From Minisyncoccota bacterium (GTDB taxonomy: Bacteria > Patescibacteriota > Minisyncoccia > Phycocordibacterales > UBA1006), in the NCBI GenBank assembly GCA_021734445.1, contig JAIPIY010000001.1, positions 110,814 to 174,813 of the forward strand: a stretch of 64,000 bases of DNA. The letters run 5' to 3'. The position numbers and the translations under genes are program-made. The notes beneath the pieces are model-generated. The model was not told the DNA's origin. It was given only the letters and a program-made list of their open reading frames with translations, and did not search any database. Below are positions 2,844-46,805 of this stretch, piece after piece. Numbering within the stretch: position 1 is the first letter of the stretch; every line of letters starts with the position of its first letter.

Positions 2844-3734
2844 TCACGCAGAAGCTGGAGTGCAAACATTAAAACCTGTACCGCCAACACAAGAGATTAT
2901 ACTAAATCCACTATTTATTTCTGTAGACCCAGATTCATTCTCAGCACGAATAATCACCTTATAATTAAAACCTTTTGGTAAAGTAGTTTGAATCTCGTGA
3001 TTTCTACTATTACGTTTTTTAGACTCAAGAGAAGAATATATCTTTGAATCATTACCTTGGTAAATTTTTATAGAACTTTCCGAAGGATAATTTGTTTTCC
3101 AAGAAATTATACATTTTTCTGCATTACAAGAATGATTAACCTCATCAATTTTTAAAGGTGTTTGCTTTGTAGAAAAGGTAACGCGCTCTGTTTTCCAAGA
3201 ATTATCTGCAAGGGCTGTTATATTACCCATATAAGGAATATCACTTTCTAGTCCACCAATATTAACAACGTGATATTTACCAACCCCTTTTTCAGAAAAA
3301 TAAGTATCCCCTTCAATCATTATTTTTGATTCAGAATCTATTGTTGTTTCCCATTTTATTTTTACTGAATACGCTTCGGCATCTGCTTCAATATTCCTAA
3401 TTGAAAGAGTATTTAAATTCGATTCTACTGGCGTTACGTTAGAAGCTACAATAGGGGTAATTATGGGTATAACAGGAGGCTGATAATCTGAAACTAGATT
3501 AATCTTTTTCTCAGTTTCTTTTGATAGAATAGGTGTTTTTTCTTTATCTATAATAACCTTTGATTCCACGGGAGCAACTTCTGCCTCTATCACCACTTCA
3601 TGTTTAGATTCTGAAACCTTTTTATCCTTCTTAAACCAAGAAAATGGGTTCCACCATACGGCAAGTGTTATACTTGGGTAAATTAATACAACTAAAAATA
3701 CAATCAAAATAATCTTTTTATATTCATTTTTCAT
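2844..3734 (-). CDS. Secreted/membrane-anchored hypothetical protein.
   Basis: 296 aa with an N-terminal TM/signal anchor (IILIVFLVVLIYPSITLAVWW). ATG confirmed at 3732-3734. Confidence 0.5.
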   Translation of the reverse strand: MKNEYKKIILIVFLVVLIYPSITLAVWWNPFSWFKKDKKVSESKHEVVIEAEVAPVESKVIIDKEKTPILSKETEKKINLVSDYQPPVIPIITPIVASNVTPVESNLNTLSIRNIEADAEAYSVKIKWETTIDSESKIMIEGDTYFSEKGVGKYHVVNIGGLESDIPYMGNITALADNSWKTERVTFSTKQTPLKIDEVNHSCNAEKCIISWKTNYPSESSIKIYQGNDSKIYSSLESKKRNSRNHEIQTTLPKGFNYKVIIRAENESGSTEINSGFSIISCVGGTGFNVCTPASA

Positions 3735-3764
3735 AATACATTAATTAAACCAATAAACCAGTAG

Positions 3765-3784
3765 TGGGTGACTATCGGGAATCG
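3765..3784. repeat. 20-nt direct copy of the tRNA-His 3' end (identical to 3960-3979), followed by GTCAC.
   Basis: Exact match tgggtgactatcgggaatcg at both positions. The copy begins at T-loop position C56 of the tRNA. Confidence 0.75.
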
Positions 3785-3833
3785 GTCACTCTTGTGGATT
3801 TTCTTTCAGAAAATCTCACGCCATTGACCTCCA
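3785..3833. repeat. Diverged copy of the conserved tRNA-downstream element (GTCAC ... GATTTTCTGAAAGAAAATC hairpin).
   Basis: Starts with gtcac and contains the AATTTTC/GAAAATT-type hairpin, as in the copies at 7309, 10093, 10355 and 15621. Confidence 0.45.
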
Positions 3834-3900
3834 CTCGCCCGCCAGGCTACGCCTGACTTTGTGCGGGCTCGGTTCGATTCCCTCTCGAAAACTTTGTTTT
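3826..3900 (+). other. Degenerate tRNA-like fragment (T-arm consensus GGTTCGATTCC, no complete cloverleaf).
   Basis: ctcggttcgattccctctcg resembles the tRNA-His T-arm, but I cannot build the stems. Confidence 0.25.
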
Positions 3901-3924
3901 CTCGTAGTCACTTTTAGACATAAC

Positions 3925-3952
3925 AAAAACGCAAGCAAAAGCCTGCGTTTTT
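3925..3952. terminator. Bidirectional hairpin terminator (AAAAACGCAAGC aaaa GCCTGCGTTTTT).
   Basis: 12-bp stem with one G.T mismatch and T-runs on both strands, immediately 3' of tRNA-His. Confidence 0.5.
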
Positions 3953-3961
3953 GTTATGCTG

Positions 3962-4034
3962 GGTGACTATCGGGAATCGAACCCGAATCAGAGGCTCCAC
4001 AAACCCCTGTGTTAACCGTTACACCATAGTCACC
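3962..4034 (-). tRNA. tRNA-His (anticodon GTG) with an encoded G-1.
   Basis: Cloverleaf built by hand: acceptor GTGACTA/TAGTCAC with an extra 5' G pairing discriminator C73, anticodon loop TTGTGGA, T-loop TTCGATT. Confidence 0.85.
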
Positions 4035-4105
4035 AATATAAAACACAAGAAAATATCTCTCCTGTGTTGCTTTGTTATACCAAAAAAATCAAATAAAAGC
4101 CAGCC

Positions 4106-5113
4106 CTAGAAAGAAATCTTTTTTCTAGCAATCAGATTTTCCAAATACAACCCTGCGATAGAAGCCAAAATAACAATAGCTAAATACACCAAAAACAATC
4201 CCCAGTATGACCAATTTGATTCTCCTATTTTTACCAAAACAAACATAACATACCATGACACCACTGAAACACTACCAAAAATAAAAACTATCTTTCGCAT
4301 CATTTCAAATGCATGTTTTTCGCCTGTGATATGTGGCTGATCAAAAGGAATTTCCGATAACTGATGACCCACCAATAGATTTACCATGACGCTATTCATA
4401 ATCAACACCAATGTAATAGTCATCACCATTAACATACTACTGGATTCCAATATTGCAGGACCAAATGATGCGTAATATCCGATTCCTACCAAGACAAACA
4501 ATCCCAGGATAAACCACAACAACTGATAGAAAAATCCAATAGTTCCTGCTTCACCTTTTGAAACATGATGATCATGCAATGAACGAAAGAAATACAAATC
4601 TGTCAGGGTCGCAATACCCACACCCAAAGCCAACGCCAACGAATATCCCACAAATAAGATATGTTGATAGGTTGCCAAAATTTCAACCAAACTAAATGGA
4701 AATGAGAACAACGAAATAACAAAAATAAATAATGAAATAGTTGCCGACCCCAAACACCATGAACACCATTCACGCAAAGCAAAAGCCTGGATAGCAACCA
4801 AATACACTGAAAACAACATTGCTAATGTTGTAATGACAATAAATACAAACATCACGCCTGGTGTACCCAAACTAGGCATAATCATGATAGTCGCATATGC
4901 CAAAGCAATCAGAGAATAATAGAAAATTCCCATCCATTCTACTGGTATACCCAAGAAATTTGAAAACCGGCTGTAAATTACCGTATCGCAATTTGCATCC
5001 AAAGGACAAATCATCTTTTCATGTTTTGCTTTTTTGTGTCGAATAAAACTGGCTAAAAAGAATCCTGCAAACGCAAGAAAAACAAGAACAATTTTTGCAA
5101 CTAATGGTGACAT
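4106..5113 (-). CDS. VKOR (vitamin K epoxide reductase) family membrane protein with an extra C-terminal multi-TM domain.
   Basis: Cys pair in the loop (CPLDANCD) and an in-membrane CSWC CxxC motif; many TM segments. Confidence 0.55.
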   Translation of the reverse strand: MSPLVAKIVLVFLAFAGFFLASFIRHKKAKHEKMICPLDANCDTVIYSRFSNFLGIPVEWMGIFYYSLIALAYATIMIMPSLGTPGVMFVFIVITTLAMLFSVYLVAIQAFALREWCSWCLGSATISLFIFVISLFSFPFSLVEILATYQHILFVGYSLALALGVGIATLTDLYFFRSLHDHHVSKGEAGTIGFFYQLLWFILGLFVLVGIGYYASFGPAILESSSMLMVMTITLVLIMNSVMVNLLVGHQLSEIPFDQPHITGEKHAFEMMRKIVFIFGSVSVVSWYVMFVLVKIGESNWSYWGLFLVYLAIVILASIAGLYLENLIARKKISF

Positions 5114-5147
5114 ATGATGAGATTATATACTAAAAACACCTTCAAAG

Positions 5148-7235
5148 CTAGAATTCCGTTACCGGCAAAGGTTCCGTTTCAGTTTCTGTTTCTGTTGGCA
5201 CATTTTCATCATTGCTAACAGATTGTTTTAATTCTGGAAATAAAATTTGAACATCTTCTGGAATAACTGAGACAATTTGATTATTAGCCAACGATGTTAA
5301 TTGCAAAGTATGCTGTACAGACATGGTATCAAAATTACTGGATCCTGAAAAACCATATGGGATAAATGTATTCTCTCGTAGAGATACCAGCCCGGTAAGA
5401 TTTTTTACGGTACGCATAAAATCAGTTTCTAATATTGTTACCATTTCACCAAAAGATTGTATCCTCATAGGATATTGATACATGGGAAGATTCATAACTG
5501 AATGTGACACACCAGGATTTTCTAATACGATAGATTGCAACCCATCTGAAACAGTGTTCACAACACCAGCTATTATTTGAACACTGTCTGGTAATGGTGT
5601 TTCTTCAGGTATGGTATGTATTACCGGTAATCGATACCAAATATCTTTTTGTATATTCAAGTGAGTAAGAATTTCTAGTGATGCTTCTCCGAAAGATACA
5701 TAAGTAAATTCTTGATCAAGTATAAATTTCATACGAACACGCTCCATACCTGATTCACGCGGTATCTCCAACGTAATATTTCCTTCTGATTGTATTCCTG
5801 TATCCCCATTACGTAACCACCCATCCACAGATAACAATGATTCTACAGGTTGTATTACAGGAATTTCTGCGTTCAAATCTTCGGTCACTATTTCTTCTCC
5901 TGCTACTTGCCCTGTTGTAACATCTGAAGATTCTGTTATTTCAACCTCTCCTTGTTCATCATTCATAGGAAAAAACAATGACTGAAATATATCTTTTTCT
6001 GATGTAATACTACCCACATAAGAAAACTGCATTCCTGAATTTGCGGGTAGAATATTTTTCAACGAAGCAAAAGCTTGTTCCGCCAAAGGAACTTCAATCA
6101 CAGTAGTTTCTTCAACAGGCGTTTCTTGATTCAAAAAACCAGAAAACAGCCCCTGTGTATATCCATACAATCCAAAACCAAATATTGCCAACACTAATAA
6201 AATAATAACCGTGATACCTATAATTTTTTGTACAGGATTATGTTTTTTGATAATTACACCATCATCATGTATTTCAGTATCAGGCGTAATTGCCATACCT
6301 CCAAAAGCTGGTGAAGCCTGGGGTGGATTAAAGGATGCCCCTGGATTAACCACAGGAGAAACTGGTTCTGATTTTGTATACCATTCTTGTGCAAAATTTT
6401 GTGCTGGTTTAGGTGCTATCACAGGATCTATAGACTTTGGTGCAATGTTTGATTCAGATGTTTTCATTACCGGTACTGATTCTTTTTCTTGAACCATACC
6501 CACAGGAACGATGGTTGGTTCTGGAATATAAGCCGATGATTGCATTGTATTTTGCATAACCGGCTGCTGTGCCAGTGTTTCTTTTACTGCAATAGATGCG
6601 GGTTGTATACGTGGATCAAAAGAATCAACTGGCTGTACAGGAGGCATCACAACAGGAGTTTTTTCTTCAACAACTGATTGCAAAGGTTCTTCTGCTGGCA
6701 TTTCTTTTACTGGATTTTCAAATGAAATACCTGCAATTTCTTCAGTAGGAGAAGACAAAGAAACATCATTCATTTGTTTTTCATTTAAACTATCAGGAGT
6801 ATTTTGTGTAACAGATTCAATCCCCGCTTGTTCCAAAGAATCATTATCCAAATCTAATACAGTAGACATTTCTTCTTGGGTTTCTGGAATATCTTTCTGT
6901 ACCAATGGAGAATGATCTTTTTCAGAAGAAACAGAAACATCTCCACCTAAATCAACATTTACAACGGGTGCTTGTTCAACCTCTTTGGATTCATACGATG
7001 GTTTTTGTGATGAAATAACTTCATCTTTGTTTTCACCTGTTTTTATTACAGATGATTCCATGGACGCCATAGGGACATCTTGTTCTGAAACACCTACTGA
7101 TTTGAATACTTCATCAACATCATCATGTGTCCATCCACCATATGCGAATAAATCTTTACGAATAATATCAAGGTGATGACCTTTTGCGATACGTAATTGA
7201 ATATAATTTACAAGTTCTGGTGTAATCATACACAC
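5148..7235 (-). CDS. Hypothetical single-TM protein with a long low-complexity (E/P/S/V/Q-rich) linker and a C-terminal extracytoplasmic domain.
   Basis: 695-aa ORF with a central hydrophobic segment IIGITVIILLVLAIFGFGLYGY. Confidence 0.45.
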   Translation of the reverse strand: MCMITPELVNYIQLRIAKGHHLDIIRKDLFAYGGWTHDDVDEVFKSVGVSEQDVPMASMESSVIKTGENKDEVISSQKPSYESKEVEQAPVVNVDLGGDVSVSSEKDHSPLVQKDIPETQEEMSTVLDLDNDSLEQAGIESVTQNTPDSLNEKQMNDVSLSSPTEEIAGISFENPVKEMPAEEPLQSVVEEKTPVVMPPVQPVDSFDPRIQPASIAVKETLAQQPVMQNTMQSSAYIPEPTIVPVGMVQEKESVPVMKTSESNIAPKSIDPVIAPKPAQNFAQEWYTKSEPVSPVVNPGASFNPPQASPAFGGMAITPDTEIHDDGVIIKKHNPVQKIIGITVIILLVLAIFGFGLYGYTQGLFSGFLNQETPVEETTVIEVPLAEQAFASLKNILPANSGMQFSYVGSITSEKDIFQSLFFPMNDEQGEVEITESSDVTTGQVAGEEIVTEDLNAEIPVIQPVESLLSVDGWLRNGDTGIQSEGNITLEIPRESGMERVRMKFILDQEFTYVSFGEASLEILTHLNIQKDIWYRLPVIHTIPEETPLPDSVQIIAGVVNTVSDGLQSIVLENPGVSHSVMNLPMYQYPMRIQSFGEMVTILETDFMRTVKNLTGLVSLRENTFIPYGFSGSSNFDTMSVQHTLQLTSLANNQIVSVIPEDVQILFPELKQSVSNDENVPTETETETEPLPVTEF

Positions 7236-7308
7236 AGTGTACCATATTTATTTTTTATTTTTTACAAAAGGTGTGTAAAAGATTTAAAACAACAAAGGAG
7301 AAGGCTTG

Positions 7309-7358
7309 GTCACAAATAATTTTCCTACAGAAAATTTTCGCGACCCCGCCTCGTCTGC
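7309..7358. repeat. Conserved tRNA-downstream element copy (3' of tRNA-Leu), preceded by a degenerate copy of the tRNA-Leu 3' end (about 7291-7308).
   Basis: gtcacaaataattttcctacagaaaattttcgcgaccccgcctcg, near-identical to the copy at 10355. Anchored to ORF 7306. Confidence 0.6.
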
Positions 7359-7391
7359 CTTGGGCATAACTCCGACCTTCAAGATCCTCAC

Positions 7392-7413
7392 GCGAGCAAA
7401 GCAGTTTGCTCGC
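7392..7413. terminator. Hairpin (GCGAGCAAA gcag TTTGCTCGC) 3' of tRNA-Leu.
   Basis: 9-bp perfect stem. Confidence 0.4.
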
Positions 7414-7438
7414 TTCCTGCGCACAGATGTTCACATTG

Positions 7439-7522
7439 TGCGCAGGAGAGGACTTGAACCTCCACGCCCTTGCGGGCACATCCACCTCAAGGATGCTTGT
7501 CTACCAGTTTCAACACCTGCGC
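7439..7522 (-). tRNA. tRNA-Leu (anticodon GAG), long variable arm.
   Basis: Acceptor GCGCAGG/CCTGCGC, anticodon stem CATCC/GGATG, loop TTGAGGT, variable arm TGCCCGCAAGGGCG, T-loop TTCAAGT. Coordinates anchored via ORF 7306. Confidence 0.85.
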
Positions 7523-7596
7523 AATGTTTTGATTATACATTTTTCGATGATTTTTACAATTTAAAAACCCTGACCATTTCGGGTAGGGTTTTTAAA

Positions 7597-8109
7597 TTAT
7601 TCAGAATCTTTTTGTGTATCTTCTGTTGTTACTACTGGTTCTGATTCTACTGTTGATTCTTCTGGAGCTTCATCAGTTGGTTCATCTTCCGGAAGGATGG
7701 TTGTCAAAAATGGAATAAGATTTCGCATTTTTCGTTTAATATCACGGGCAACCTTGGTTCGAACGTAATATAGTTTAGATCGTCTTACTTTTGATCGACG
7801 TACTACTTCTATTTTTTCAATAGATGGTGAATATAATGGGAAGATACGTTCTACACCTACACCACTGGCTACCTTGCGAACAGTAAAAGTTGCACCAGGT
7901 TCTGTTCCATGTTTTCGCGCGATTAAAAGACCTTCAAAAAGCTGAATACGGGTTTTTCCTTTTTCTTCAATTTTTACATGCACACGAACAGTATCCCCTG
8001 CACGCAGGTCAATATTTTTTCGTTCATGTATTGATACGGGCGTAAAAGCCACAGTTGTACTTGCTGTCATAACGTGAGAAACTATAACATATCCAATTTT
8101 GTTTTGCAA
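7597..8109 (-). CDS. rplS: 50S ribosomal protein L19 with an N-terminal and an acidic C-terminal extension.
   Basis: [31 protein letters not shown]...[21 protein letters not shown] is typical L19. Confidence 0.8.
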
Positions 8110-8822
8110 TAGACCAAAGCATCTTCAAAATCTTTTGGAAAAGGAGCTTCAAAATGGACCCTTTCTCCTGATAAGGTAATAAAATCTATTGCACGCGCAT
8201 GCAATGCCTGACGTTTAAAACCTAACAGATTTGGTCGGTTTGGTGCATATAATGTATCCGCTAACATAGGATGTTGTAGATATTGCATATGCACGCGCAG
8301 TTGGTGGGTTCTTCCTGTTTCTGGCAATAAAACAATATAAGAAACCAAATCATCCTGTAATCGATATTTTGTTCGATAATGAGTTACCGCCTGACGCTCT
8401 TGTCCACGTTTTCCCCTGCCGGCACTATAACGACGAAAATCACGCGGGCTACGCGCAATAGGTGCATCAACGGTCCCTGCATCTTTTTTTACTATACCGT
8501 GCACAAATGCATGATATTCTTTGGTGATCGTATGATTTTGGAATTGTTCTTTGAGATGGAGAAACATTTCAGGAGTTCGTGCAACAATCAAAATTCCCGA
8601 AGTATCTTTATCCAAACGATGCACAATACCAGGACGATCGATAACCGTTCCGTCTTTTAATCTCATGGGTTCTCCTACACCAACAATGTCAGGAAATTGT
8701 TCCACCAAAAAATCCACCAATGTTTTTTCATCGGTGTGTCCATCCGCGTGCACCAACAAACCAGCGGGTTTATTGATGATGAGGAAATGTGGGTCGGTGT
8801 GAAGAATATTTAGATATTTCAT
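8082..8822 (-). CDS. RluA-family pseudouridine synthase.
   Basis: [15 protein letters not shown] catalytic motif. Start moved to the internal ATG MKYLNIL (8822); the ORF-track start at 8984 would overlap the divergent gene. Confidence 0.75.
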
Positions 8823-8844
8823 ATAATATGTTATAGTATACAAT

Positions 8845-9549
8845 ATGAATATAAATTTTGATATAGAAAAATCCCCTATTAAAAAGGAGACTATCAGAAA
8901 ACCTTGGTCTGATGAAAATATTGGGTTTCTCTTAGGAAACATGCACATATTAAAAAACAAAGAGAAAGCGCTCAATGATCCCAATAATTACAGAGAAAAA
9001 AGCATCGAAACATTTAACGAGCTTGATACTTTCCTTAGAGACAATGGGGGCACTCATTATGAAAATATTAATGATTTATATAATCAATATAACAGTACAA
9101 CAAAACCGCTTATTGTAAGAAGAGAAGATCCGATACGTATTGTTAACCTCATAAAAGGTGATTCTATTAAAATGGAATTTGATCCAGAAGTTGTTGGTGA
9201 TAGAGGGGATAAATATGCTAATTCTGCATTATGGCCATATGGACCTATTAATAAAACAAGTGGAATTGCAAATGCATTTCTTGAAGGTCGAGGTGCCGCT
9301 GGACCAATAGTGATCGTTGCTGGATACACACACAACCAAGATCATATGACAATTGAAGACCCTCATGAGCACATGGCAGAAGTTGGGACAATTCAAAGAC
9401 ATGCAATAAAAATCCTTTCAGGAGAAATAGAGACCAAAGATCTAGAATTTCTTATAGTCAGGGCACCAAAAAAGTTTTTTGATCCAACAAAACTAAAACC
9501 AGAAGAACAACATTCAGAGCAAATTTTTAGAGGGTATAAATTTAAATAA
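8845..9549 (+). CDS. Hypothetical protein.
   Basis: 234-aa ORF with no motif I recognise. Confidence 0.4.
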   Translation: MNINFDIEKSPIKKETIRKPWSDENIGFLLGNMHILKNKEKALNDPNNYREKSIETFNELDTFLRDNGGTHYENINDLYNQYNSTTKPLIVRREDPIRIVNLIKGDSIKMEFDPEVVGDRGDKYANSALWPYGPINKTSGIANAFLEGRGAAGPIVIVAGYTHNQDHMTIEDPHEHMAEVGTIQRHAIKILSGEIETKDLEFLIVRAPKKFFDPTKLKPEEQHSEQIFRGYKFK

Positions 9550-9578
9550 AAAAATAGGCTGAAATGATGTAAATCACC

Positions 9579-9923
9579 TCAGCCTTGTTTGTTTTTTGTC
9601 ACTAATACATCAACACAAGAAACGCACGTAAGTGCACCGGGTACCAATCTTAACCTGGCGACCGGTATATCCTGAGAGCATTTTTTACAAATACCATATT
9701 TCCCATCTTTTATAGCATTCAATGCTTCGATGAGAAATGGGGTAACTACCTGTGTTTTTCTTTGTTGATATGGAGTCAAATCTCCTAAAGTAAGAATCTG
9801 CTCTGCAATAAGATCTTTATCATTATAACGATCAATACGAGCTTGAATAATTTCTTTTTGAATTTTTACAAAAGAAGTCCAACCGGGACCATTTCTCACA
9901 AGAATTTCTTCTTTTTCCTCCAT
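9579..9923 (-). CDS. DksA/TraR-family C4 zinc-finger protein.
   Basis: C-terminal CKKCSQDIPVARLRLVPGALTCVSC four-Cys finger; ~114 aa. Confidence 0.6.
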   Translation of the reverse strand: MEEKEEILVRNGPGWTSFVKIQKEIIQARIDRYNDKDLIAEQILTLGDLTPYQQRKTQVVTPFLIEALNAIKDGKYGICKKCSQDIPVARLRLVPGALTCVSCVDVLVTKNKQG

Positions 9924-10039
9924 GGGTGTACAGTTTTTATTCTTTGATATTATACTTTAAAATAATAATAAAGTCAATACCATGCATATTATCTTATTTA
10001 AAACTTATATTTAGAGAAAAACATCATCATGGCAAAAAA

Positions 10040-10059
10040 GCGACCACCTTCGTGGCCGC
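10040..10059. terminator. Hairpin GCGACCAC cttc GTGGCCGC followed by a T-run.
   Basis: 8-bp stem with one mismatch, between the DksA-like gene and the tRNA cluster. Confidence 0.35.
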
Positions 10060-10067
10060 CTTCTTTG

Positions 10068-10092
10068 TTTTATGTGCGCGATGAGGGACTTG
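10068..10092. repeat. 25-nt direct copy of the tRNA-Val 3' end plus 4 trailer nt (identical to 10238-10262), followed by GTCAC.
   Basis: Exact identity confirmed through two overlapping ORF-track frames (10072 and 10215). The copy starts at T-loop C56. Confidence 0.85.
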
Positions 10093-10140
10093 GTCACGAA
10101 TATTTTGCTTTACAAAATTTCTCGACCCCGACTCGGCGAC
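10093..10140. repeat. Conserved tRNA-downstream element copy (3' of tRNA-Val).
   Basis: gtcacgaatattttgctttacaaaatttctcgaccccgactcggcgac. Confidence 0.6.
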
Positions 10141-10244
10141 AATTTTGTAAGACAAAATCGTAAACCGCCTCCGTCTTTCAAGTCCCAATCTCTTGGTAAA
10201 ATACAAAAGCCCGAATGCTTTGCATCCGGACCTTGTATTTTATG

Positions 10245-10317
10245 TGCGCGATGAGGGACTTGAACCCCCGACCTTCTCGGTGTAAACGAGCTGCTCTACC
10301 AACTGAGCTAATCGCGC
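10245..10317 (-). tRNA. tRNA-Val (anticodon TAC).
   Basis: Acceptor GCGCGAT/ATCGCGC, D-arm GCTC AGTTGGTA GAGC, anticodon loop TTTACAC, T-loop TTCAAGT. Confidence 0.85.
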
Positions 10318-10354
10318 TATGTTTTTATTATAAAGAAAAATCTTTACTCCGTGT

Positions 10355-10399
10355 GTCACAAATAATTTTCCTAGCGAAAATTTTCGCGACCCCGACTCG
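10355..10399. repeat. Conserved tRNA-downstream element copy (3' of tRNA-Arg-TCT; the flanking tRNA-end copy is eroded).
   Basis: gtcacaaataattttcctagcgaaaattttcgcgaccccgactcg. Confidence 0.6.
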
Positions 10400-10447
10400 C
10401 CTGTGTTCCAAGTATTCACACTACGGCTCCGTCCGCACACTTCGCTC

Positions 10448-10469
10448 GAATGTAAAGAAATTTACATTC
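10448..10469. terminator. Hairpin GAATGTAAA gaaa TTTACATTC, 3' of tRNA-Arg.
   Basis: 9-bp perfect stem. Confidence 0.4.
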
Positions 10470-10481
10470 TTTACGCTCGTG

Positions 10482-10553
10482 TGCCCCCGCTAGGAATCGA
10501 ACCTAGATTAACGGCTTAGAAGTCCGCAGTTCTATCCATTGAACTACAGGGGC
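10482..10553 (-). tRNA. tRNA-Arg (anticodon TCT).
   Basis: Acceptor GCCCCTG/CGGGGGC, D-arm GTTC AATGGATA GAAC, anticodon loop CTTCTAA (one A.G mismatch at the stem base), T-loop TTCGATT. Confidence 0.7.
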
Positions 10554-10621
10554 ATCTTACCCTATCAGACCGTATACACGGTACCTAAAACGAAGGACCA
10601 ACAAAGTATAGCATATTTCGT

Positions 10622-10933
10622 TTATTGGTCAATATATTCGTTTGCCACCGGACGCATATCATTACGCTCTTCGAGAATTTCCAAAACTTTGTCCAAATTA
10701 TCTTGATGCAACACAGGAACGATCTGATCTGAAATAATTTCTTCTTCTACATGGATACGATCAGATACCACATAATAACGATATACAATTGCTGTAATCC
10801 CGAGGATTATAACGAAGCCAATAAAAAATCCTACTACAGACCATTGCCAAACAATAGTTGGTCGAAATCGTGAACGAATTTTTTTAATCGTTTCCTCAAG
10901 AGTGTTTATTGCTGTATCTGTTTTTATTATCAT
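10622..10933 (-). CDS. Small single-TM protein, first gene downstream of pilO (possible pilus assembly accessory).
   Basis: 103 aa with one TM (WSVVGFFIGFVIILGITAIVY). Confidence 0.4.
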   Translation of the reverse strand: MIIKTDTAINTLEETIKKIRSRFRPTIVWQWSVVGFFIGFVIILGITAIVYRYYVVSDRIHVEEEIISDQIVPVLHQDNLDKVLEILEERNDMRPVANEYIDQ

Positions 10934-10937
10934 ATTT

Positions 10938-11459
10938 TTATATCTGAGGAATAAAACTTGTCATACGACCAGTAATCACCAATCTCCACTGATCAATAAC
11001 TGGATCCTCCCCCTGAAACGGAGCAACAGAAACCTGATCAAGATCAATCACATAGGGTAATACTTCAAAGCGATGCAAGGCACGTGCGATGTTTTCAAAA
11101 TCCCCTCGAAAATCTACCCCCATCAATAAATGTGGTTCTTTTTCCTGTATGATATCCAACTGTGAAAGAGACAACACTACACCTTCTTCTGATGCCAGTG
11201 TTTCTAATTCTTTTATCAAATCAACGATATGCTGTTCTTCGATATGCATATTGTTTAATTGACTTTCAATAGAATCAATATCGCGTGTCATAATTCGTAA
11301 CGATTCAATTTGTTTTGTTTTTTGTTGCTCTTGTGCAAATTGTTTTTGAATTTCTTGGGTTTGTATTACAGTTTCTCGCACTTGTATCACCAAAAAAATA
11401 AACCCTGCAAGGATAAGAAGGCAAAAGATGCTACTGGTAATAAGGAGAGAATGTTTCAT
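10938..11459 (-). CDS. pilO: Type IV pilus assembly protein PilO-like.
   Basis: N-terminal TM plus coiled coil. Position after pilM/pilN. Confidence 0.5.
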   Translation of the reverse strand: MKHSLLITSSIFCLLILAGFIFLVIQVRETVIQTQEIQKQFAQEQQKTKQIESLRIMTRDIDSIESQLNNMHIEEQHIVDLIKELETLASEEGVVLSLSQLDIIQEKEPHLLMGVDFRGDFENIARALHRFEVLPYVIDLDQVSVAPFQGEDPVIDQWRLVITGRMTSFIPQI

Positions 11460-11460
11460 A

Positions 11461-12021
11461 TTATTGTGGTTCAGCTAATATTGCTGATAAAGAAAACGTC
11501 ACATCGTTTCCCGCTACAAAATGTGATACTGGAACAACAACATCAAGAAACGCGGGGTGATTTTTTATCGTTTGTATAAAAAATAATAAATCTTCTCGAG
11601 TCTGTGCAATACCACGCATAAACACAGTACCAGGGTTATCTTCTGTTGATTGAACAATACGTATTTCTTGTAATGCAATTCCTGCTGATGCTTTTTCACC
11701 CAGAACTATAACAATATCTGAAATGGTCGGCTGTTGAAAAGTAACCAAAGCTTTTTTTGTTTTTGTATTCACATCACGGATTCTTTTTACAATATCGCGA
11801 TATTCTTGATTTTCATCTTGATCCAATAACGTTTGCAAAGAAGCTTCTGCAATAGAGTAATTAACCCGTGCATACATATATAATCCCGAAAAAAGAATCC
11901 CCGCACACAACAACAGCGCCATACCCATATACAACACAATCATAACCGAACGTTTTTTCATTTCTCGATCGATTTGTTTTTTGTATTCTGTTGTTAAAAT
12001 ATTAATAGTCATATATTTCAC
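11461..12021 (-). CDS. pilN: Type IV pilus assembly protein PilN-like.
   Basis: Single TM after a short cytoplasmic N-terminus, then a periplasmic coiled coil. Overlaps the pilM stop. Confidence 0.5.
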   Translation of the reverse strand: MKYMTINILTTEYKKQIDREMKKRSVMIVLYMGMALLLCAGILFSGLYMYARVNYSIAEASLQTLLDQDENQEYRDIVKRIRDVNTKTKKALVTFQQPTISDIVIVLGEKASAGIALQEIRIVQSTEDNPGTVFMRGIAQTREDLLFFIQTIKNHPAFLDVVVPVSHFVAGNDVTFSLSAILAEPQ

Positions 12022-13102
12022 CTAATGCCAAACCCAAAGCAGTGGCATATGATAACGATTCTTCTTGGGATAATGCTGGAATATCTTCATCAAAAGACAA
12101 AATATTTTTCCATACCGAAGCTACCGTAACGGGCATATGCATCGTCGATGATAAATATTCTGCAAATCCAGGTAATAACGATCCTCCTCCCACCAAATAC
12201 ATTCCATCAATAGTTCCAGAAACTCCTGGTAATTTACCATGGGCGGTATGCCAATATAGGTAGTGTTTATTTATTTCATCACGCAATGCACTAATATTAT
12301 TAATCACGGTAAAGAAATAATCTTGGTCATCCGTATTGTGTAATAATCCTCGTGATTGTTTTATGGTTTCTGCTTCTTCTTTTGAAATCTGAAAATATTT
12401 TGCGATGGCTTCGGTTAATGAATCAGATCCAATATCCAATGTCGATGTAAACACCGTAGCGCCAGAAACGATAATAGAAAAACCTGATCGATTCTTTCCA
12501 TAGTCAACCAAAATATACGTTCCTGCATCATGTCGAGGAACTGTAACCCGTGATAATGCATGCACCTCTAATTCCCCCACTAATGGACGCAATCCAGCTG
12601 ATAGAAAAGCACGCGTATAGGTTTCAATAATTTCTCGTGGAAATGCAGTAACGCTGATTAATAACGAATCCTCGTGTTCACGAAAAATTTCATATCCAAA
12701 AGAAATATCGGATTCTGGCAAAGGAACATGTTCTTCTATCTGCAAACGAATAGCTTCTTCTAAATGAGGTAAAGCTTTTTTAGGTAACATAATCGAAAAA
12801 ACATACGCATGTTCTTCAGGTAAAGAAAACCGAACCCAACTGGCTTTTGTTTTTTGTTGAATAGAACGCAATGCCGAAGTAAAAGCAGGAATATCATGAA
12901 CAACACCTGAAACAACAATATCTTTTTGGAGAGCATGTTCTCCATATTCTCCTAATTTCAGAGATGTATTTTTTCTTTTCAGGGTAGCAAAACGTAATGT
13001 GTCATCAGAAATATCAATAGACAATGCAGGCATACGTGCAAACGCAGGTGCAGGGAAAAGTTTTTGAATCACGTGAGAAAACTTCATAGATATAGTATAC
13101 AC
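12002..13102 (-). CDS. pilM: Type IV pilus assembly ATPase-fold protein PilM.
   Basis: 366 aa with an actin-like fold signature (LSIDISDDTLRFATLK ... MYLVGGGSLLPGFAEYL). Confidence 0.65.
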   Translation of the reverse strand: MYTISMKFSHVIQKLFPAPAFARMPALSIDISDDTLRFATLKRKNTSLKLGEYGEHALQKDIVVSGVVHDIPAFTSALRSIQQKTKASWVRFSLPEEHAYVFSIMLPKKALPHLEEAIRLQIEEHVPLPESDISFGYEIFREHEDSLLISVTAFPREIIETYTRAFLSAGLRPLVGELEVHALSRVTVPRHDAGTYILVDYGKNRSGFSIIVSGATVFTSTLDIGSDSLTEAIAKYFQISKEEAETIKQSRGLLHNTDDQDYFFTVINNISALRDEINKHYLYWHTAHGKLPGVSGTIDGMYLVGGGSLLPGFAEYLSSTMHMPVTVASVWKNILSFDEDIPALSQEESLSYATALGLALGEIYDY

Positions 13103-13120
13103 GAAATATCTCTCTTGGGT

Positions 13121-13699
13121 CTAGTTTTTTAAAACAAAATAAAGAATTACCATACACACAAATAATATAGTTATCATGCGCAGATGTTTTACATAATGCG
13201 ACAATACGATTCGCGCTCGATCTCCAAATAAAAATACAATATACGCTTCGATATAAAAACGTAATCCACGACCCAACACTGAACCCAAAATAAACGGTAT
13301 CAAAGGGACCTGAAAAAATCCGCCTAAAATGGTAAATAATTTAAACGGAATAGGGGTAAACGCTGTGATAAACATGGTGACAAAAGTAGCTGATGCAAAC
13401 AAATGTGCAATCGTTGTGATATAATTTTTTGTATCATAAAACTGCACCAATGATTCAGCAAAACCTTCAAAAAGAAAAAAACCCAACGCATAACCAGCCA
13501 GCCCGCCCAAGATAGAAGCAACAGTGGTAATACCTGCATATCGCCACCATGCGTGTTTATTAGCAAAAACCATAGGTATCAGTAATATATCAGCTGGAAT
13601 CGGGAAAAAGGAACTTTCTATAAAAGATACAATCGCCAAAACCCATACCGAAGTACGTGATACAAGCCAATTTTGTACTATATGCAACCACCGATTCAT
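13121..13699 (-). CDS. DedA/VTT-domain family membrane protein.
   Basis: FIESSFFPIPADILLIPM ... GRGLRFYIEAYIVFLFGDR are typical DedA motifs. Confidence 0.65.
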   Translation of the reverse strand: MNRWLHIVQNWLVSRTSVWVLAIVSFIESSFFPIPADILLIPMVFANKHAWWRYAGITTVASILGGLAGYALGFFLFEGFAESLVQFYDTKNYITTIAHLFASATFVTMFITAFTPIPFKLFTILGGFFQVPLIPFILGSVLGRGLRFYIEAYIVFLFGDRARIVLSHYVKHLRMITILFVCMVILYFVLKN

Positions 13700-13703
13700 A
13701 TAA

Positions 13704-14051
13704 TTATCGAACCACGGTACCGGGTGCCACAGATGTTTCTGGAACTAAAAATACTGGTTTTCCATCGATACCATCCACCGCCATCAACATACCATTACTG
13801 GTCACACCGCGAATATCACGTGGTTCCAGATTAGTTACATACAATAATTGTTTCCCAACCAATAGTTCATATTCGGGATAATATTCTCGAATTCCAGATA
13901 CAATCTGTCGCAAGACTGAATTCCCTTCGTCATCTTTTTCTCCAAAATCAATCTCACAACGCAATAACTTATCAGACCCCTCGACCGGTTCAACTAATTT
14001 CACAGTACCAATTTGCATGGTTAATTTTTTAAAATCATCGTAGGTAATCAT
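13704..14051 (-). CDS. tRNA-binding domain protein (CsaA/Trbp111/EMAP-like OB fold).
   Basis: LLVGKQLLYVTNLEPRDIRGVTSNGMLMAVDG. Confidence 0.6.
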   Translation of the reverse strand: MITYDDFKKLTMQIGTVKLVEPVEGSDKLLRCEIDFGEKDDEGNSVLRQIVSGIREYYPEYELLVGKQLLYVTNLEPRDIRGVTSNGMLMAVDGIDGKPVFLVPETSVAPGTVVR

Positions 14052-14076
14052 AGGGTTTATAGTAAAGGTTAATCTA

Positions 14077-14493
14077 TTATTTTTGTTTGTCTAAATATCT
14101 TTGTAACATAATCGCAGCTGCTAATGCATCGTCTTCGCCAGTTGGCTTTTTTGCACGACTACGTGACACATTTTTTTCTGGAACCAAAGACTGCAAAGCT
14201 GATCTGGTAGTAAAATCTTCACGTTGAGTATCAATAGGAATCTGCACCAAAAATGACATTTGCCCTATGAAATCTCGCACGTCATCCATAATCGCATTAT
14301 CGTTTCCTTTTGCATCTTTTGATTCTCCTATAATGATTTTTTCTACTCGTTCATCTGATACAATTTTTGCAATCACATGATGAATATCTGCTGTTGTTGG
14401 AATCACTTTGTAAGCAAAAGCCATAGAACCATCATCGTCTGACAATGCTAATCCTATTTTCTTTTTTCCATAATCAATTCCCAAATACCGCAT
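14077..14493 (-). CDS. ruvX: Holliday junction resolvase-like YqgF/RuvX.
   Basis: MRYLGIDYGKKKIGLALSDDDGSMAFAYKVI; 138 aa. Confidence 0.75.
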   Translation of the reverse strand: MRYLGIDYGKKKIGLALSDDDGSMAFAYKVIPTTADIHHVIAKIVSDERVEKIIIGESKDAKGNDNAIMDDVRDFIGQMSFLVQIPIDTQREDFTTRSALQSLVPEKNVSRSRAKKPTGEDDALAAAIMLQRYLDKQK

Positions 14494-14494
14494 A

Positions 14495-15262
14495 TTATTC
14501 AGAAGCTACCGTAATAGGTAACATACATTCATGAGATTGCCCTTCGTCTGGACCAGCAGGATTATTATCAGTAAAAATTAACTGTGCGTTCATATCTGCT
14601 GGAATAGATGATAATGCAGGCACAACCAAAGAGAATGGTTTTGGATTTCCATTCATCCAATCAACAGACAGACTCATCAAAACAGGTCCAGCCAATACGG
14701 TACCCTGCATATCTTTGATCACTACATGACCTGCTTCCCCTTCGAATACAGTCCAATCCTGAGGGTTTGATGTAGGATGAATAAATCCTGAAACTTCTAA
14801 CGGAAAAGAAAGATTTTCTAATGTTGTTGGTTGTGCAATAGCCAACCCTAAACAAGCTTGTGCTTCGTTTTCATTTTCAAATGTGTATTCTGTTTCTTGA
14901 ATTTTCGCATGTAATGCCTGTCTGGTCAGTAGATCCACAATACCAGTTTGTGGTACACCTGCATCCAACTGAAATGCCAACACTGCATCTTCGGTATACG
15001 AATAATAATGCCCGTTTGGTTCCCCATTCAGATATCCATGATCGATAAGAAATTCTTGTAATTTTCGAATCTCTTCGTTGTTCTCCATTCCGTACTGTAA
15101 ATTTTGTGTAAACACAGGAACAAAAGATTCGTCCAATTCTTCGAAATCAACTTCGGAAATAACTTGAACCGGTTCGTCTTTTGATTTTGTATATACTGCG
15201 ATACCAATACCCACGAGAACGATTATAAACAAGCTAAAGAAAAATTTAAATGGTGTTGTCAT
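14495..15262 (-). CDS. Secreted protein with a peptidoglycan-binding (PG_binding_1-like) domain.
   Basis: N-terminal TM/signal; motif YSYTEDAVLAFQLDAGVPQTGIVDLLTRQAL. Confidence 0.5.
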   Translation of the reverse strand: MTTPFKFFFSLFIIVLVGIGIAVYTKSKDEPVQVISEVDFEELDESFVPVFTQNLQYGMENNEEIRKLQEFLIDHGYLNGEPNGHYYSYTEDAVLAFQLDAGVPQTGIVDLLTRQALHAKIQETEYTFENENEAQACLGLAIAQPTTLENLSFPLEVSGFIHPTSNPQDWTVFEGEAGHVVIKDMQGTVLAGPVLMSLSVDWMNGNPKPFSLVVPALSSIPADMNAQLIFTDNNPAGPDEGQSHECMLPITVASE

Positions 15263-15430
15263 ATAAAAAAATAAGTGATAAAAACGGGATTAACCTTGAA
15301 TATAGTATAGCATATATACACTCACCTGAAAAAATTGCAGACTTTTGCTGTATATGATAGGATGCTTTTGTATACATATGTTATACAAAGACCTATCTTA
15401 TAAAGGCAATAATGCTTTTAAAAAGATATT

Positions 15431-15517
15431 GGAGGAGTGGCAGAGAGGTCGATTGCACTTGTCTTGAAAACAAGAGTCTGGGGAACCGGACCGTGAGTTC
15501 GAATCTCACCTCCTCCG
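15431..15517 (+). tRNA. tRNA-Ser (anticodon TGA), type II.
   Basis: Acceptor GGAGGAG/CTCCTCC+G, anticodon stem CTTGT/ACAAG, loop CTTGAAA, long variable arm, T-loop TTCGAAT. Anchored via ORF 15412. Confidence 0.85.
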
Positions 15518-15620
15518 CAACGACCCGAAAGGGTGATGTCTATTACCCGATTGGGTTGTCGGCGCGTGAGAATGTGAGATTCGAAAGACGGAGGCGCGAA
15601 GCCGATTCGCAGAATCGTTG

Positions 15621-15664
15621 CCGAGTCAGGGTCGTGAAATTTTGCGTAGCAAAATATTCCTGAC
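15621..15664. repeat. Conserved tRNA-downstream element copy (3' of tRNA-Ser), ending in CTGAC.
   Basis: ccgagtcagggtcgtgaaattttgcgtagcaaaatattcctgac. Confidence 0.6.
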
Positions 15665-15685
15665 CGAATCTCACCTCCTCCGCAA
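15665..15685. repeat. 21-nt direct copy of the tRNA-Ser 3' end (identical to 15500-15520), beginning at T-loop C56.
   Basis: Exact identity verified through the ORF 15412 frame. Confidence 0.85.
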
Positions 15686-15731
15686 TTAGTATTTAGTATC
15701 GGAGTGACCCAAGAGCTTATAATCAATAAAC

Positions 15732-16148
15732 ATGGCTGAAGACTTTTCTAAAAATTTGGTCAAAGAATACTCGCATTGGAGTATCTATGTGCATGACAAT
15801 CAAGGGTATCTCGGACGATGTGTTATTTGGTGCAAAAGAGAAGATGCTCTCGACATGGTGGATGCAACTGAGGATGAGCAGAGAGAACTCTTTCTAGTAT
15901 TGAGAGATCTCCAAAAAGCTTCCAAAGATTGCTTTAATCCCGACTGGTTCAACTATGCCTTTTTGGGAAACGAAACTCGCCACCTACATGGCCACTTTAT
16001 TCCTCGGTACAAAGAGCCGAAGACTTTTATGGATACTACTTTTGAAGATAAATTATGGGGTCATAACTATAAAACCGACCACTCTTTCATTATTTCAGAC
16101 GAGCTATTGCAAGCGGTTAGAAATAAACTCAAAGCTTCTCTTGGATAG
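15732..16148 (+). CDS. HIT-family (histidine triad) hydrolase-like protein.
   Basis: HLHGHFIPR triad motif; 138 aa. Confidence 0.55.
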   Translation: MAEDFSKNLVKEYSHWSIYVHDNQGYLGRCVIWCKREDALDMVDATEDEQRELFLVLRDLQKASKDCFNPDWFNYAFLGNETRHLHGHFIPRYKEPKTFMDTTFEDKLWGHNYKTDHSFIISDELLQAVRNKLKASLG

Positions 16149-33187: not shown

Positions 33188-33259
33188 GCTCTCGTCGTTC
33201 AATGGATAGGACATGACTTTGCGGAAGTTAAAATATAGGTTCGATTCCTATCGAGAGCA
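33188..33259 (+). tRNA. tRNA-Arg, anticodon read as GCG (unusual for bacteria).
   Basis: Acceptor GCTCTCG/CGAGAGC+A, D-arm GTTC/GGAC, anticodon stem TGACT/AGTTA, loop TTGCGGA, T-loop TTCGATT. Anchored via ORF 33199. Confidence 0.65.
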
Positions 33260-33266
33260 CATAATA

Positions 33267-33965
33267 TTATAAAACACCCACAGCATAAGAAATCCTTATT
33301 GCCTCTTTTTCTTTTTTTATTTTCCTGATTTTTATTGAGACTATTTGATTCAAATACGCCACATGCGTACCTCCGCAAGGAATACAAAAATCACCATAAA
33401 ACACCGTACGCATAGGTTTCCCATTTTGCAGTTTCGTATCATCAAAAACCAATGTTGTTTTTATATCTCGAGAAATAATAGCATTACATGATTGCTCTAA
33501 TTCGGATAGCAATGTATCAATAGATATATTTTCCATATCGGCCACATATTCAACATAAGATCCCTCTGGGAAATGATATCCTTTTCCCGGCACCCAAGAT
33601 ATTTGCAATTCTTTTAATGCCATATCTATCACATGACCTGCGCTGTGCAGCCGCGAATGTAGTATTCTTTTTTCTTTATCTACAAAACACAATATTTCCA
33701 TACCAACCGATATATCACCCTGTTCTAGTATTCCAATATGATGCACAGCATCGTCTATATACCGAACTTGTTGTACCCGAAATACTACAGCACCATCGGA
33801 TGTTTTTATCACCCCAGTATCATACGGCTGACCACCACCCTGTGGGTAAAAAACCGTTTGATCAAGGATCACAGTAACGCCAATTTCATTTTTTTGTATA
33901 GAGATAATTTTCGCGGAACATTCTGTTTGTTCCATATTTTTCATGTATAAAAGTTCTGTTTTCAT
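33267..33965 (-). CDS. AlaX-like alanyl-tRNA editing protein (tRNA_SAD domain).
   Basis: HSAGHVID ... CGGTHV zinc-binding motifs; 232 aa. Confidence 0.7.
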   Translation of the reverse strand: MKTELLYMKNMEQTECSAKIISIQKNEIGVTVILDQTVFYPQGGGQPYDTGVIKTSDGAVVFRVQQVRYIDDAVHHIGILEQGDISVGMEILCFVDKEKRILHSRLHSAGHVIDMALKELQISWVPGKGYHFPEGSYVEYVADMENISIDTLLSELEQSCNAIISRDIKTTLVFDDTKLQNGKPMRTVFYGDFCIPCGGTHVAYLNQIVSIKIRKIKKEKEAIRISYAVGVL

Positions 33966-37503: not shown

Positions 37504-38028
37504 ATGTACCCTGTATTTGATACCATTATGGGCTCAGGAATACTGGTATTAGGTATACTGTCCATAATTATATTAGTTCTCTATTTTGTTTCACCAAAAT
37601 ATGCAATCATTTTATGGATACAGAATAATATTTTGATTGTAGGATTTGTTATTGCGTTAGGTGGTGTAATGGGATCTCTTATCTATTCAGAGATTATTGG
37701 ATTCGAACCATGTCGCCTGTGTTGGTATCAAAGAGTTGCATTATTCCCTATTGCACTATTGTCTGGAATAGCAATCATCAAAAAACACTCGTGGATAACC
37801 CTGTATGGATTGGTATTGTCCATTATTGGCGGAATTATCGCCATATATCATATTATTCTAGAAAAAAATATATTTGGTGATGCGGTAAATCTACCCTGTG
37901 CAGCAGATGCGGTATCTTGTACTGTCCAATACGTCTATGTGTTTGATGGTCTGATTACCATCCCATCTATGTCTTTTGTCGTGTTCTTTGCCCTGTTTAC
38001 GGTATTCTTTATTGGTTCAAAAAAATAA
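37504..38028 (+). CDS. Disulfide bond formation protein B (DsbB/BdbC family).
   Basis: EPCRLCWYQR motif plus a second Cys pair (CAADAVSC); 4 TM segments. Confidence 0.7.
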   Translation: MYPVFDTIMGSGILVLGILSIIILVLYFVSPKYAIILWIQNNILIVGFVIALGGVMGSLIYSEIIGFEPCRLCWYQRVALFPIALLSGIAIIKKHSWITLYGLVLSIIGGIIAIYHIILEKNIFGDAVNLPCAADAVSCTVQYVYVFDGLITIPSMSFVVFFALFTVFFIGSKK

Positions 38029-38104
38029 AAACCAGACAATCAAAAATCCCCCATCTGATGATGGGGGATTTTTGCGTCTATTACCAATAAGTGCTATGTA
38101 GTAG

Positions 38105-46741: not shown

Positions 46742-46767
46742 ATGGTTGTAGTATAGCATGTTACTAT

Positions 46768-46801
46768 AAAAAGAAAATCCCCTATAGGGGATTTTCTTTT
46801 T
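46768..46801. terminator. Perfect hairpin AAAAAGAAAATCCCC tata GGGGATTTTCTTTTT between the rplB stop and the giant gene 1 start.
   Basis: 15-bp stem. It ends 9 nt before ATG 46759. Confidence 0.6.
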
Positions 46802-46805
46802 ATAT

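Follow-up and report, generated by a model that had tools for sequence, protein, structure and literature searches.

The 3' flank of the tRNA-Ser(TGA) gene in the 64,000-nt stretch of a Minisyncoccota bacterium genome analysed here (contig JAIPIY010000001.1, positions 110,814 to 174,813; hereafter the window) carries a member of a new, apparently undescribed family of small non-coding elements found in Patescibacteria. Elements of this family are laid out as a copy of the host's own 3' part (X(up)), a spacer (L), a segment antisense to the host (X') with 2 further nt (NN), a core of ~80 nt that ends in (C/G)UGAC, and a second copy of the host sequence (X(down)). The Ser copy has all that marks the family, namely the core, a guide made of X' plus NN that reads across the host junction, and a host copy X directly after (C/G)UGAC. 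We read it as a selfish, guide-bearing, intron-like RNA element, a tentative reading to which we give a probability of roughly 45%.

The host gene itself is complete (15431-15518 on the plus strand by ARAGORN; 15431-15517 by Rfam, 59.8 bits), and its T-arm, gtgag-ttcgaat-ctcac, places T54 at 15498, T55 at 15499 and C56 at 15500. The sole direct repeat at the locus matches 15500-15520 to 15665-15685 with 21 of 21 positions identical (CGAATCTCACCTCCTCCGCAA) at a spacing of 165 nt, and the recurrence of an exact 21-mer within 165 nt is far beyond chance. Its downstream copy begins exactly at C56 and is preceded by CTGAC (15660-15664), which confirms the 21-nt end copy described in the initial annotation of this DNA. 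The element had there been placed at 15621-15664; the module is real, but that span is helix P3 only, and the covariance model of the family (R1, below) matches 15575-15674 (69.3 bits, E 3e-17). Segment 15568-15585 is antisense to positions 54-71 of tRNA-Ser (15498-15515), forming an inverted repeat of 18 nt at 89%, and an inverted-repeat search found 16 nt of it complementary also to the downstream copy (15665-15680); the guide is able to pair with either X(up) or X(down). Within the guide, 15574-15583 (GTGAGATTCG) is antisense to C56-C65 and AA at 15584-15585 to U54-U55, with 15564-15570 pairing in part with the acceptor 3' strand. The features of the locus, some of them defined by comparison with contig L120, a relative that lacks the module, are as follows.

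15431-15518, plus strand: host gene tRNA-Ser(TGA) (ARAGORN, Rfam, sequence)
15500-15520, plus strand: X(up), upstream repeat copy, C56 to C74 plus AA, within the functional tRNA (100% identity)
15521-15563, plus strand: L, element-borne spacer with a strong hairpin (RNAfold; absent from L120)
15564-15585, plus strand: guide X' plus NN (inverted repeats, NN covariation in the family, folds)
15586-15664, plus strand: conserved three-way-junction core (R1 match, covariation, conserved positions)
15665-15685, plus strand: X(down), downstream repeat copy and 3' strand of helix P1, contiguous with the native trailer (repeat, fold, start of the L120 alignment)
15686-15731, plus strand: D, native tRNA-Ser trailer and upstream spacer of the HIT-family gene that follows (aligned with the spacer of L120)

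Two folds are predicted for the Ser precursor: the minimum-free-energy structure combines the cloverleaf with P1, and the centroid has X' on the tRNA's own T-arm and the 5' acceptor strand of the tRNA paired with X(down).

A structured RNA family with a host-specific guide

Scanning a 22-nt core pattern against a species-representative genome collection gave at least 119 loci; among the matches listed, all records are Patescibacteria or metagenome-assembled genomes (MAGs) of unclassified bacteria, with labels that include Nomurabacteria, Paceibacterota, Saccharibacteria, Moranii-, Taylor-, Adler- and Niyogibacteria. The same pattern had 0 matches in 2.9 million viral contigs. From 50 seed sequences, aligned and folded with RNAalifold, we built the covariance model R1, which finds at least 134 copies in the window and 99 loci, and the recurrence of the module at those 99 other loci bears out the earlier view that the Ser copy is no local artefact. 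The consensus of the 50 seeds is a three-way junction of ~100 nt that runs through P1 (X':X), a 3-nt joiner (J1), a 3-bp helix (Pa), a loop GGA/GA, P2, a GG joiner and P3 (GUCG...UGAC). Helix Pa reads GNC/GN'C, its variable pair covarying as C-G, G-C or A-U, and RNAalifold reports double compensatory changes in 20 of the 34 pairs among the seeds. Conservation of the core is phylum-wide and includes compensatory changes. In the alignment of all 134 copies, 33 of the 34 pairs have changes on both sides, and pairing extends to 96.1% of cells, a share that drops to 72% in shuffles and to 37-50% when partners are slid; the unpaired junction nucleotides (GGA, GA, GG and a bulged A) are nearly invariant. 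The Ser core shows the same parts (J1 A; Pa as GAC/GTC; internal loop GGA/GA; P2; the GG junction; P3 as GGGTCG...CTGAC), and its P2 carries a Ser-type extra branch (GGCGCGAAGCC). Variant-type copies served to build a second model, R2; it cross-matches canonical copies, and we therefore place canonical and variant types in one superfamily.

Searches for a described relative gave no match. Rfam 15 at the gathering threshold returned no family for the module over the whole window; at E<=5 over 3500-16000 it returned tRNAs and noise only, with no match to group I introns, HEARO, IS605-orfB, hammerheads or other known self-cleaving ribozymes; and over 19 of the loci it returned tRNA, tmRNA and rRNA only, with no module family. 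Literature searches turned up group I intron papers and TIGR-Tas only, with no description of such an element. No protein family is linked to the module either: clustering of the open reading frames (ORFs) within 2.5 kb of modules at the 119 loci gave no linked family (the top cluster is housekeeping, at 9 loci) and no IS110, TnpB, IscB, integrase or reverse-transcriptase gene, and Pfam on 40 window ORFs gave no transposase, integrase, reverse transcriptase or TnpB.

Hosts are mostly tRNA genes, a same-strand tRNA lying directly upstream of 94 of the 134 copies, with 19 amino-acid identities represented. The remaining copies stand at locus edges, in tandem arrays, after tmRNA genes and at the 3' ends of protein genes. 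Two loci have modules after tmRNA genes (L086:2934-3041, and L014:1206-1488 with two modules in tandem), X being the T-loop of the tRNA-like domain; the protein-gene hosts are rplL (L037:3221-3329), topA (L004:1057-1163, L063:2732-2836) and a gene for a small basic protein (L031:1146-1244). The independence of strand and tRNA identity that had been proposed from the Ser copy holds in this wider set, in which the module follows the strand of its tRNA and occurs with 19 tRNA identities plus tmRNA. At the L004 topA gene, X(up) and X(down) have two differences, both synonymous in the topA frame. Tandem module arrays are found at L068:4389-4629 and L064:6981-7429, and also at L001, L021, L045, L074 and L079; those at L068 and L064 consist of identical units with periods of 132 and 335 nt and fit unequal crossing-over between X copies.

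X(down) starts in two registers, at C56 (T-loop class, junction U55|C56) or at C72 (acceptor-end class, junction 71|72), the acceptor-end junction being used by about half of all copies, and a single copy, after tRNA-Arg(TCT) in the window, starts at 72|73. The shared C56 junction first noted for the window modules accordingly stands for Ser, Val, Leu and His but not for Arg(TCT), which joins at C72|A73. Intact repeats stop sharply at C74. Nine span exactly C56-C74 (19 nt) and six measure 20-21 nt; in the acceptor-end class the repeat consists of C72-A73-C74, and repeats in the family range from 3 to 25 nt. In about half of the T-loop copies X(down) has decayed. A further hairpin, P0, with a conserved CUGC tetraloop is present in 42 of the 134 copies, CUUC and CUAC loops also occurring; it lies inside X' in the T-loop class, and in the acceptor-end class the tRNA end and the trailer make it up together with X'. 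The P0 loop CUGC and the P2 loop GCAG were considered as partners in a kissing interaction, an idea dropped because the two do not covary; nor does the P0 loop covary with the P3 loop.

The segment X' varies with the host and is complementary to its own host's sequence, and the first two nucleotides of J1 (NN) pair with the host dinucleotide that directly precedes the repeat boundary. This NN pairing holds in 31 of 31 acceptor-end copies across eight dinucleotides (shuffle mean 10.9, with 0 of 2000 shuffles reaching 31) and in 39 of 41 T-loop copies through the pairs AA:UU, GA:UC and CA:UG, and it is kept at rplL (AG versus CT) and topA (TG versus CA); the third J1 position never pairs with the host. 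Because NN pairs in this way, X' plus NN reads the junction NN|X in the upstream RNA, and the GAC of P3 precedes X(down). The guide pairs with 2 nt on the upstream side of the junction and with 4-19 nt on the downstream side, where its partner is also the 5' end of the unit. In copies with a decayed X(down), complementarity to the tRNA exceeds that to X(down), at 16 versus 8 nt (L036), 16 versus 4 (L077) and 17 versus 9 (L089). X' matches the genomic trailer and not CCA, which places the pairing in cis, inside the precursor. As each copy pairs with its own host and two nucleotides past the boundary, recognition looks sequence-specific, acting through a variable guide; the earlier proposal that T-loop structure rather than sequence is recognised finds no support in these copy-specific complementary guides with NN pairing, nor in the acceptor-end junction of about half of the copies or the hosts rplL and topA, which have no T-loop.

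Two origins of X(down) were considered and rejected. Self-primed copying of X' does not account for copies in which X(down) follows the tRNA and X' does not (Val in the window and Val in the relative L130). Copying from mature tRNA would place CCA in X(down) but not in the gene, as seen in 2 of ~15 intact copies, which is not significant, and two cases show the opposite pattern.

Insertion and turnover among close relatives

The closest homologue of the HIT gene (86% identical protein) lies on contig L120; a spacer of 45 nt separates tRNA-Ser(TGA) from HIT there, and the module is absent. The L120 tRNA end and downstream sequence align with the window from X(down) onwards at 84% over 398 nt. 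The window therefore has a 165-nt insertion bounded by the repeat, for which L120 provides a precise empty site, and by the same alignment L came with the element, whereas the native trailer of this tRNA is what follows X(down). Save for L120, the HIT-homologue contigs (P0003-P0017) have no synteny with the window. Three further contigs, L130, L131 and L132, are syntenic with it (L19 protein identities 94%, 88% and 97%), and the module sites compare as follows.

Ser: window, canonical copy; L130, empty; L131, empty; L132, not covered
His: window, variant copy; L130, empty; L131, variant copy; L132, not covered
Val: window, canonical copy; L130, variant copy; L131, empty; L132, not covered
Leu: window, canonical; L130, variant; L131, no recognisable module; L132, third core type plus a partial variant-type unit
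Arg(TCT): window, canonical; L130, decayed copy, not found by R1; L131, decayed, 28 bits; L132, not covered

Copies are thus gained, lost, replaced and decayed between close relatives. Three different core types occupy the Leu site, the orthologous Arg(TCT) copies have lost invariant nucleotides, and in the His copy of L131 both X' and X(down) match that contig's own tRNA-His. The Leu and Val units of L130 differ by 1 nt, both carry an anti-Leu guide, and X(down) is a perfect Val copy; this identity reflects either a recent move or gene conversion. Elsewhere a shared spacer-plus-core unit recurs behind tRNAs for Lys and Arg from different MAGs, its NN adapted to each host.

The third core, unrelated-looking in sequence (ACCTTTTTGAGTTTTTATGAAGCCCGATAGGGCG...TGTAATG), lies at L132:2714-2966, downstream of tRNA-Leu (2629-2713). 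It is flanked by an anti-Leu guide with a P0 hairpin and by a tRNA copy starting at T54, and is followed by the start of a variant-type unit that is ended by the contig edge. This suggests that several core classes share the guide-plus-copy layout. Separately, L130 has a 23S_rRNA_IVP-family gene (3365-3730) between its RuvX and tRNA_bind genes; these two genes are adjacent in L131, and one L120 gene product matches both families.

Proposed action and competing explanations

We favour a selfish element because the family is strongly conserved while its individual copies are dispensable and decaying, as expected where the structure works for the spread of the element itself. From the observed structure, guide rule, insertion and turnover we infer the following for its action at the RNA level, for any catalysis and for its mode of spread. 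The guide would have two alternative partners, one being the 3' part of the tRNA itself together with the dinucleotide ahead of the junction, the other the downstream copy; these pairings would place the boundaries NN|X(up) and GAC|X(down) at one and the same position in the three-way junction. There, the ~20 near-invariant junction nucleotides may form a ribozyme centre or a binding site for a factor encoded elsewhere, and this centre would cut and join, driving spread to matching sites; in the Ser copy the predicted reactive positions are 15499|15500 and 15664|15665. Since the unit supplies a replacement for the host 3' part, the tRNA would remain whole without splicing, which would explain why so many tRNA genes, five of the six in the window, tolerate a copy. 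If this is true, an unrecognised kind of RNA with a programmable guide and without a protein of its own would be present in many copies in the streamlined genomes of Patescibacteria (five in this 64-kb window); it would extend the short list of natural RNAs that are guide-directed or catalytic by a new class, could account for odd 3' flanks and partial tRNA-gene duplications in annotations of the candidate phyla radiation (CPR), and would offer a compact ~100-nt scaffold whose target is set by base pairing.

Several observations weigh against the selfish, intron-like reading. The upstream tRNA is always complete and the element never interrupts a gene; an obligatory intron was rejected, since joining the upstream sequence to X(down) never yields an otherwise missing tRNA, and with every tRNA independent of X(down), splicing is superfluous and may not take place. 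At topA, X(up) stands within the coding sequence, ~100 nt upstream, and L comprises native coding sequence, a layout that fits poorly with a simple unit inserting at the junction. The native Val terminator stands after X(down) in the window and before X' in L130, and the near-identical L130 units may stem from gene conversion instead of movement. Core identity is 0.25-0.79 within genomes versus 0.51 between genomes, and a recent burst within genomes was rejected, within-genome copies being as diverged as between-genome ones. Counts of G-U versus A-C in the guide helices (29:21 and 23:16) do not separate RNA-level from DNA-level pairing. Finally, catalysis, transcript ends and circular or excised forms are at present predictions from sequence, and the retargeting of a guide to a new host is left unexplained by the model.

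A stronger form of the same idea, in which the element would found a new protein-less class of catalytic RNA, a guide-and-copy mini-intron or ribozyme, seems to us doubtful. Its single guide would bring U55|C56 or the acceptor-end site to the element's own 3' boundary and exchange strands there, with self-excision, reverse insertion into matching tRNAs or exchange of a damaged tRNA 3' part for the spare copy on the element as variants; were the last true, it could serve as an RNA-only repair or immunity device against tRNA-cutting toxins. 

For the intron-like reading as a whole, the nearest comparison is with group I introns. Patescibacteria are rich in protein-less self-splicing group I introns, located in the anticodon loops of tRNA genes (PMC13011429), which speaks for that reading. 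The element shares with them the phylum, the host genes, a protein-less structured RNA, presence that varies between genomes and the dispensability of individual copies; its guide across the junction may be a counterpart of P1/P10, but the downstream partner is here also the 5' end of the unit. Unlike them, it does not interrupt its gene, and its place is the T-loop or the acceptor end, not the anticodon loop; it is a ~100-nt three-way junction without the P3-P9 catalytic core of group I or an Rfam intron match, its guide pairs only 2 nt upstream, and the unit duplicates the host 3' part. Hammerheads, retrozymes and satellite RNAs resemble it in helix order (a variable stem I, a hairpin II with tandem G-A, and a hairpin III) and in the boundary between III and I, and the tandem unit arrays at L068 and L064 recall retrozymes, but CUGANGA and GAAA are absent, there is an extra 3-bp Pa, Rfam gives no hammerhead match, and cleavage would here be hypothetical.

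A host function would make the module a cis-regulatory switch for 3'-end maturation, the core being an aptamer or protein-binding domain. P1 (X':X(down)) would compete with the pairing of X' to the tRNA 3' part and trailer: with P1 formed, the tRNA would fold and leave its 3' end free for RNase Z and CCA addition, and otherwise the 3' part would be locked in a long helix. The mutually exclusive pairings are conserved and both kept, X' fits the genomic trailer and not CCA, as expected of cis pairing in the precursor, the three-way junction with its invariant junction nucleotides resembles an aptamer, the tRNA end of acceptor-end copies forms the base of a terminator-like hairpin, and the element is abundant at tRNA genes of reduced genomes. 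Riboswitches and T-boxes are likewise junction domains closed by a P1 that competes with an alternative pairing, with a cis link to tRNA biology, but the element lies downstream of its gene, is lost or replaced among close relatives and also follows protein genes. We nevertheless consider the switch unlikely, given that the Ser, His and Val tRNAs of close relatives do without the element and decay is seen in some orthologous copies, that three unrelated-looking core types occupy one Leu site, that rplL and topA are hosts too, that exactly bounded repeats and a decaying X(down) resemble an insertion footprint, and that no known ligand class is suggested and Rfam has no match. If it were correct, this would be the first cis-acting structured RNA found governing tRNA 3' ends.

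Spread by DNA-level enzymes is a further option. The bridge RNAs or seekRNAs of IS110/IS1111 and the omega RNAs of TnpB/IscB combine a scaffold with a reprogrammable, site-matching segment. By that logic the module would be a guide RNA together with the ends of a miniature, non-autonomous element, inserted at guide-matching sites by a transposase, recombinase or nuclease encoded elsewhere and acting in trans. The variable guide complementary to the target across the insertion junction, the target-like sequence directly after a conserved scaffold in the manner of a 3' guide, the insertion polymorphism, and the decay of single copies within a conserved family all agree with this. It is still quite improbable in our view: no such gene lies near modules at the 119 loci or among the 40 window ORFs, HEARO and IS605-orfB of Rfam show no likeness to the module, a TnpB-type guide would be blocked by the mutual complementarity of guide and 3' copy, a repeat of 3-25 nt matches neither the 2-nt core of IS110 nor the absence of a repeat in IS200/IS605, and the motif is without a match in the viral contigs. 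Compared system by system, bridge and omega RNAs share the conserved scaffold with a site-matching segment (here a target-identical sequence directly after the scaffold) but differ in having a transposase or nuclease gene, in footprint and in sequence and structure, the present element having a single guide paired to a target copy in cis. IS110/IS1111 in particular has a DEDD/RuvC-like transposase and separate target and donor loops, against one guide here; in contrast to the IS200/IS605 TnpB omega-RNA elements and palindrome-associated transposable elements (PATE), in which the scaffold overlaps the tnpB 3' end or the right end and carries a free 3' guide without target duplication, the module has no tnpB, pairs its 3' segment internally and is bounded by a direct repeat; and it is unlike a miniature inverted-repeat transposable element (MITE) in that its inverted repeat is the guide against the flanking host and not the element's ends, with a repeat length of 3-25 nt in place of a short target duplication of fixed size.

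Integrases offer a different enzyme. As Williams reportedly described in 2002, their sublocations in tRNA genes are the T-loop and the extreme 3' end, and tmRNA genes are used as well. The modules could on this account be integrase-mobilised remnants or miniatures resembling cis-mobilizable elements (CIME-like), with the repeats as attL and attR, a tyrosine integrase recombining a small circle that carries the tRNA 3' part into the T-loop or 3' end of tRNA and tmRNA genes. The two junction classes, the use of tmRNA and the identity block that restores the 3' end match those sublocations, precise loss between the repeats is seen, and tyrosine-integrase elements likewise have a replacement 3' end with the displaced partial copy as a direct repeat; the repeat from C56 or C72 to C74 restores the tRNA, as attL and attR do. 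Yet we hold this to be very unlikely. The unit is 100-170 nt (165 nt at Ser, not kilobases) with no integrase nearby, its core has RNA-type covariation with conserved G-U pairs that att sites do not need, the antisense guide and its 2-nt extension have no role in att sites, the acceptor-end repeat is only 3-4 nt (repeats of 3 nt being possible), and no viral copies were found.

Sister copies and neighbouring features in the window

ARAGORN finds six tRNAs in the window, five of which are followed by a module, after Ser on the plus strand and after His, Leu, Val and Arg(TCT) on the minus strand, and the homologous regions align. An 18-nt core motif occurs 4 times in the window against 0.00 expected in shuffles. 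Single-sequence folds of the window modules agree (z-scores -5.2 to -7.5), each with a hairpin after the tRNA and then a multi-branch domain closed by X':X(down) pairing. Besides the Ser copy, the modules are the following.

10083-10187, minus strand: copy after tRNA-Val(TAC) (10244-10317); R1 66.3 bits; junction C56
7299-7388, minus strand: copy after tRNA-Leu(GAG) (7438-7522); R1 63.1 bits; junction C56
10345-10445, minus strand: copy after tRNA-Arg(TCT) (10481-10553); R1 57.1 bits; acceptor-end class
3775-3882, minus strand: divergent variant copy after tRNA-His (3961-4033); R2 117.7 bits; junction C56

The Val repeat is 25 nt long, with X(up) at 10262-10238 and X(down) at 10092-10068. In the Leu(GAG) copy X(down) has decayed (12/20), but X' has kept its complementarity to the tRNA, and the interval 7389-7437 contains a P0 hairpin whose loop is CUGC. 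The Arg(TCT) copy, joined at C72|A73, has ACACG as X(down), and its NN' is GC and pairs with G71-C72. The His copy is not detected by R1; its X(down) lies at 3784-3765, and X'a (GTGACTA), a P0 hairpin and X'b (GGGAATCG) are present. The only window tRNA without a module is tRNA-Arg(GCG) (33188-33260); it lies on the plus strand like tRNA-Ser, which had been described at the outset as the only plus-strand tRNA of the group. The 3' end of tRNA-Arg(GCG) lies 6 nt from the end of a convergent gene (33267-33965, minus strand) for an AlaX-like editing domain (tRNA-synt_2c, tRNA_SAD).

Use of the Ser region as a promoter by the HIT gene at 15732, also suggested at the outset, is unlikely, because the module contains no promoter-like site and a conserved TATAAT box stands in the native spacer. 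A sequence scan found no sigma-70-like site on the plus strand in 15300-15800, and TATAAT at 15718-15723, 8 nt before the HIT start codon, lies in the native spacer and is conserved in the module-less L120. That TATAAT may be a promoter giving a nearly leaderless HIT mRNA.

A weak R1 match (24.9 bits) at 37995-38090 on the minus strand begins 15 nt past the stop codon of the ORF at 38105-38731; it has a P1 (TTATTGGT/ACCAATAA), a Pa (AGAC/GTCT) and a terminator-like P2, with a T-rich run in place of P3, and may be a degenerate relative or a chance match. Elsewhere in the window, two minus-strand ORFs of 1368 and 833 aa (42773-46879 and 54370-56871) each carry a Peptidase_S74 domain, a tail-fibre-like endosialidase chaperone, and both lie within the ribosomal-protein/EF-Tu/EF-G cluster.

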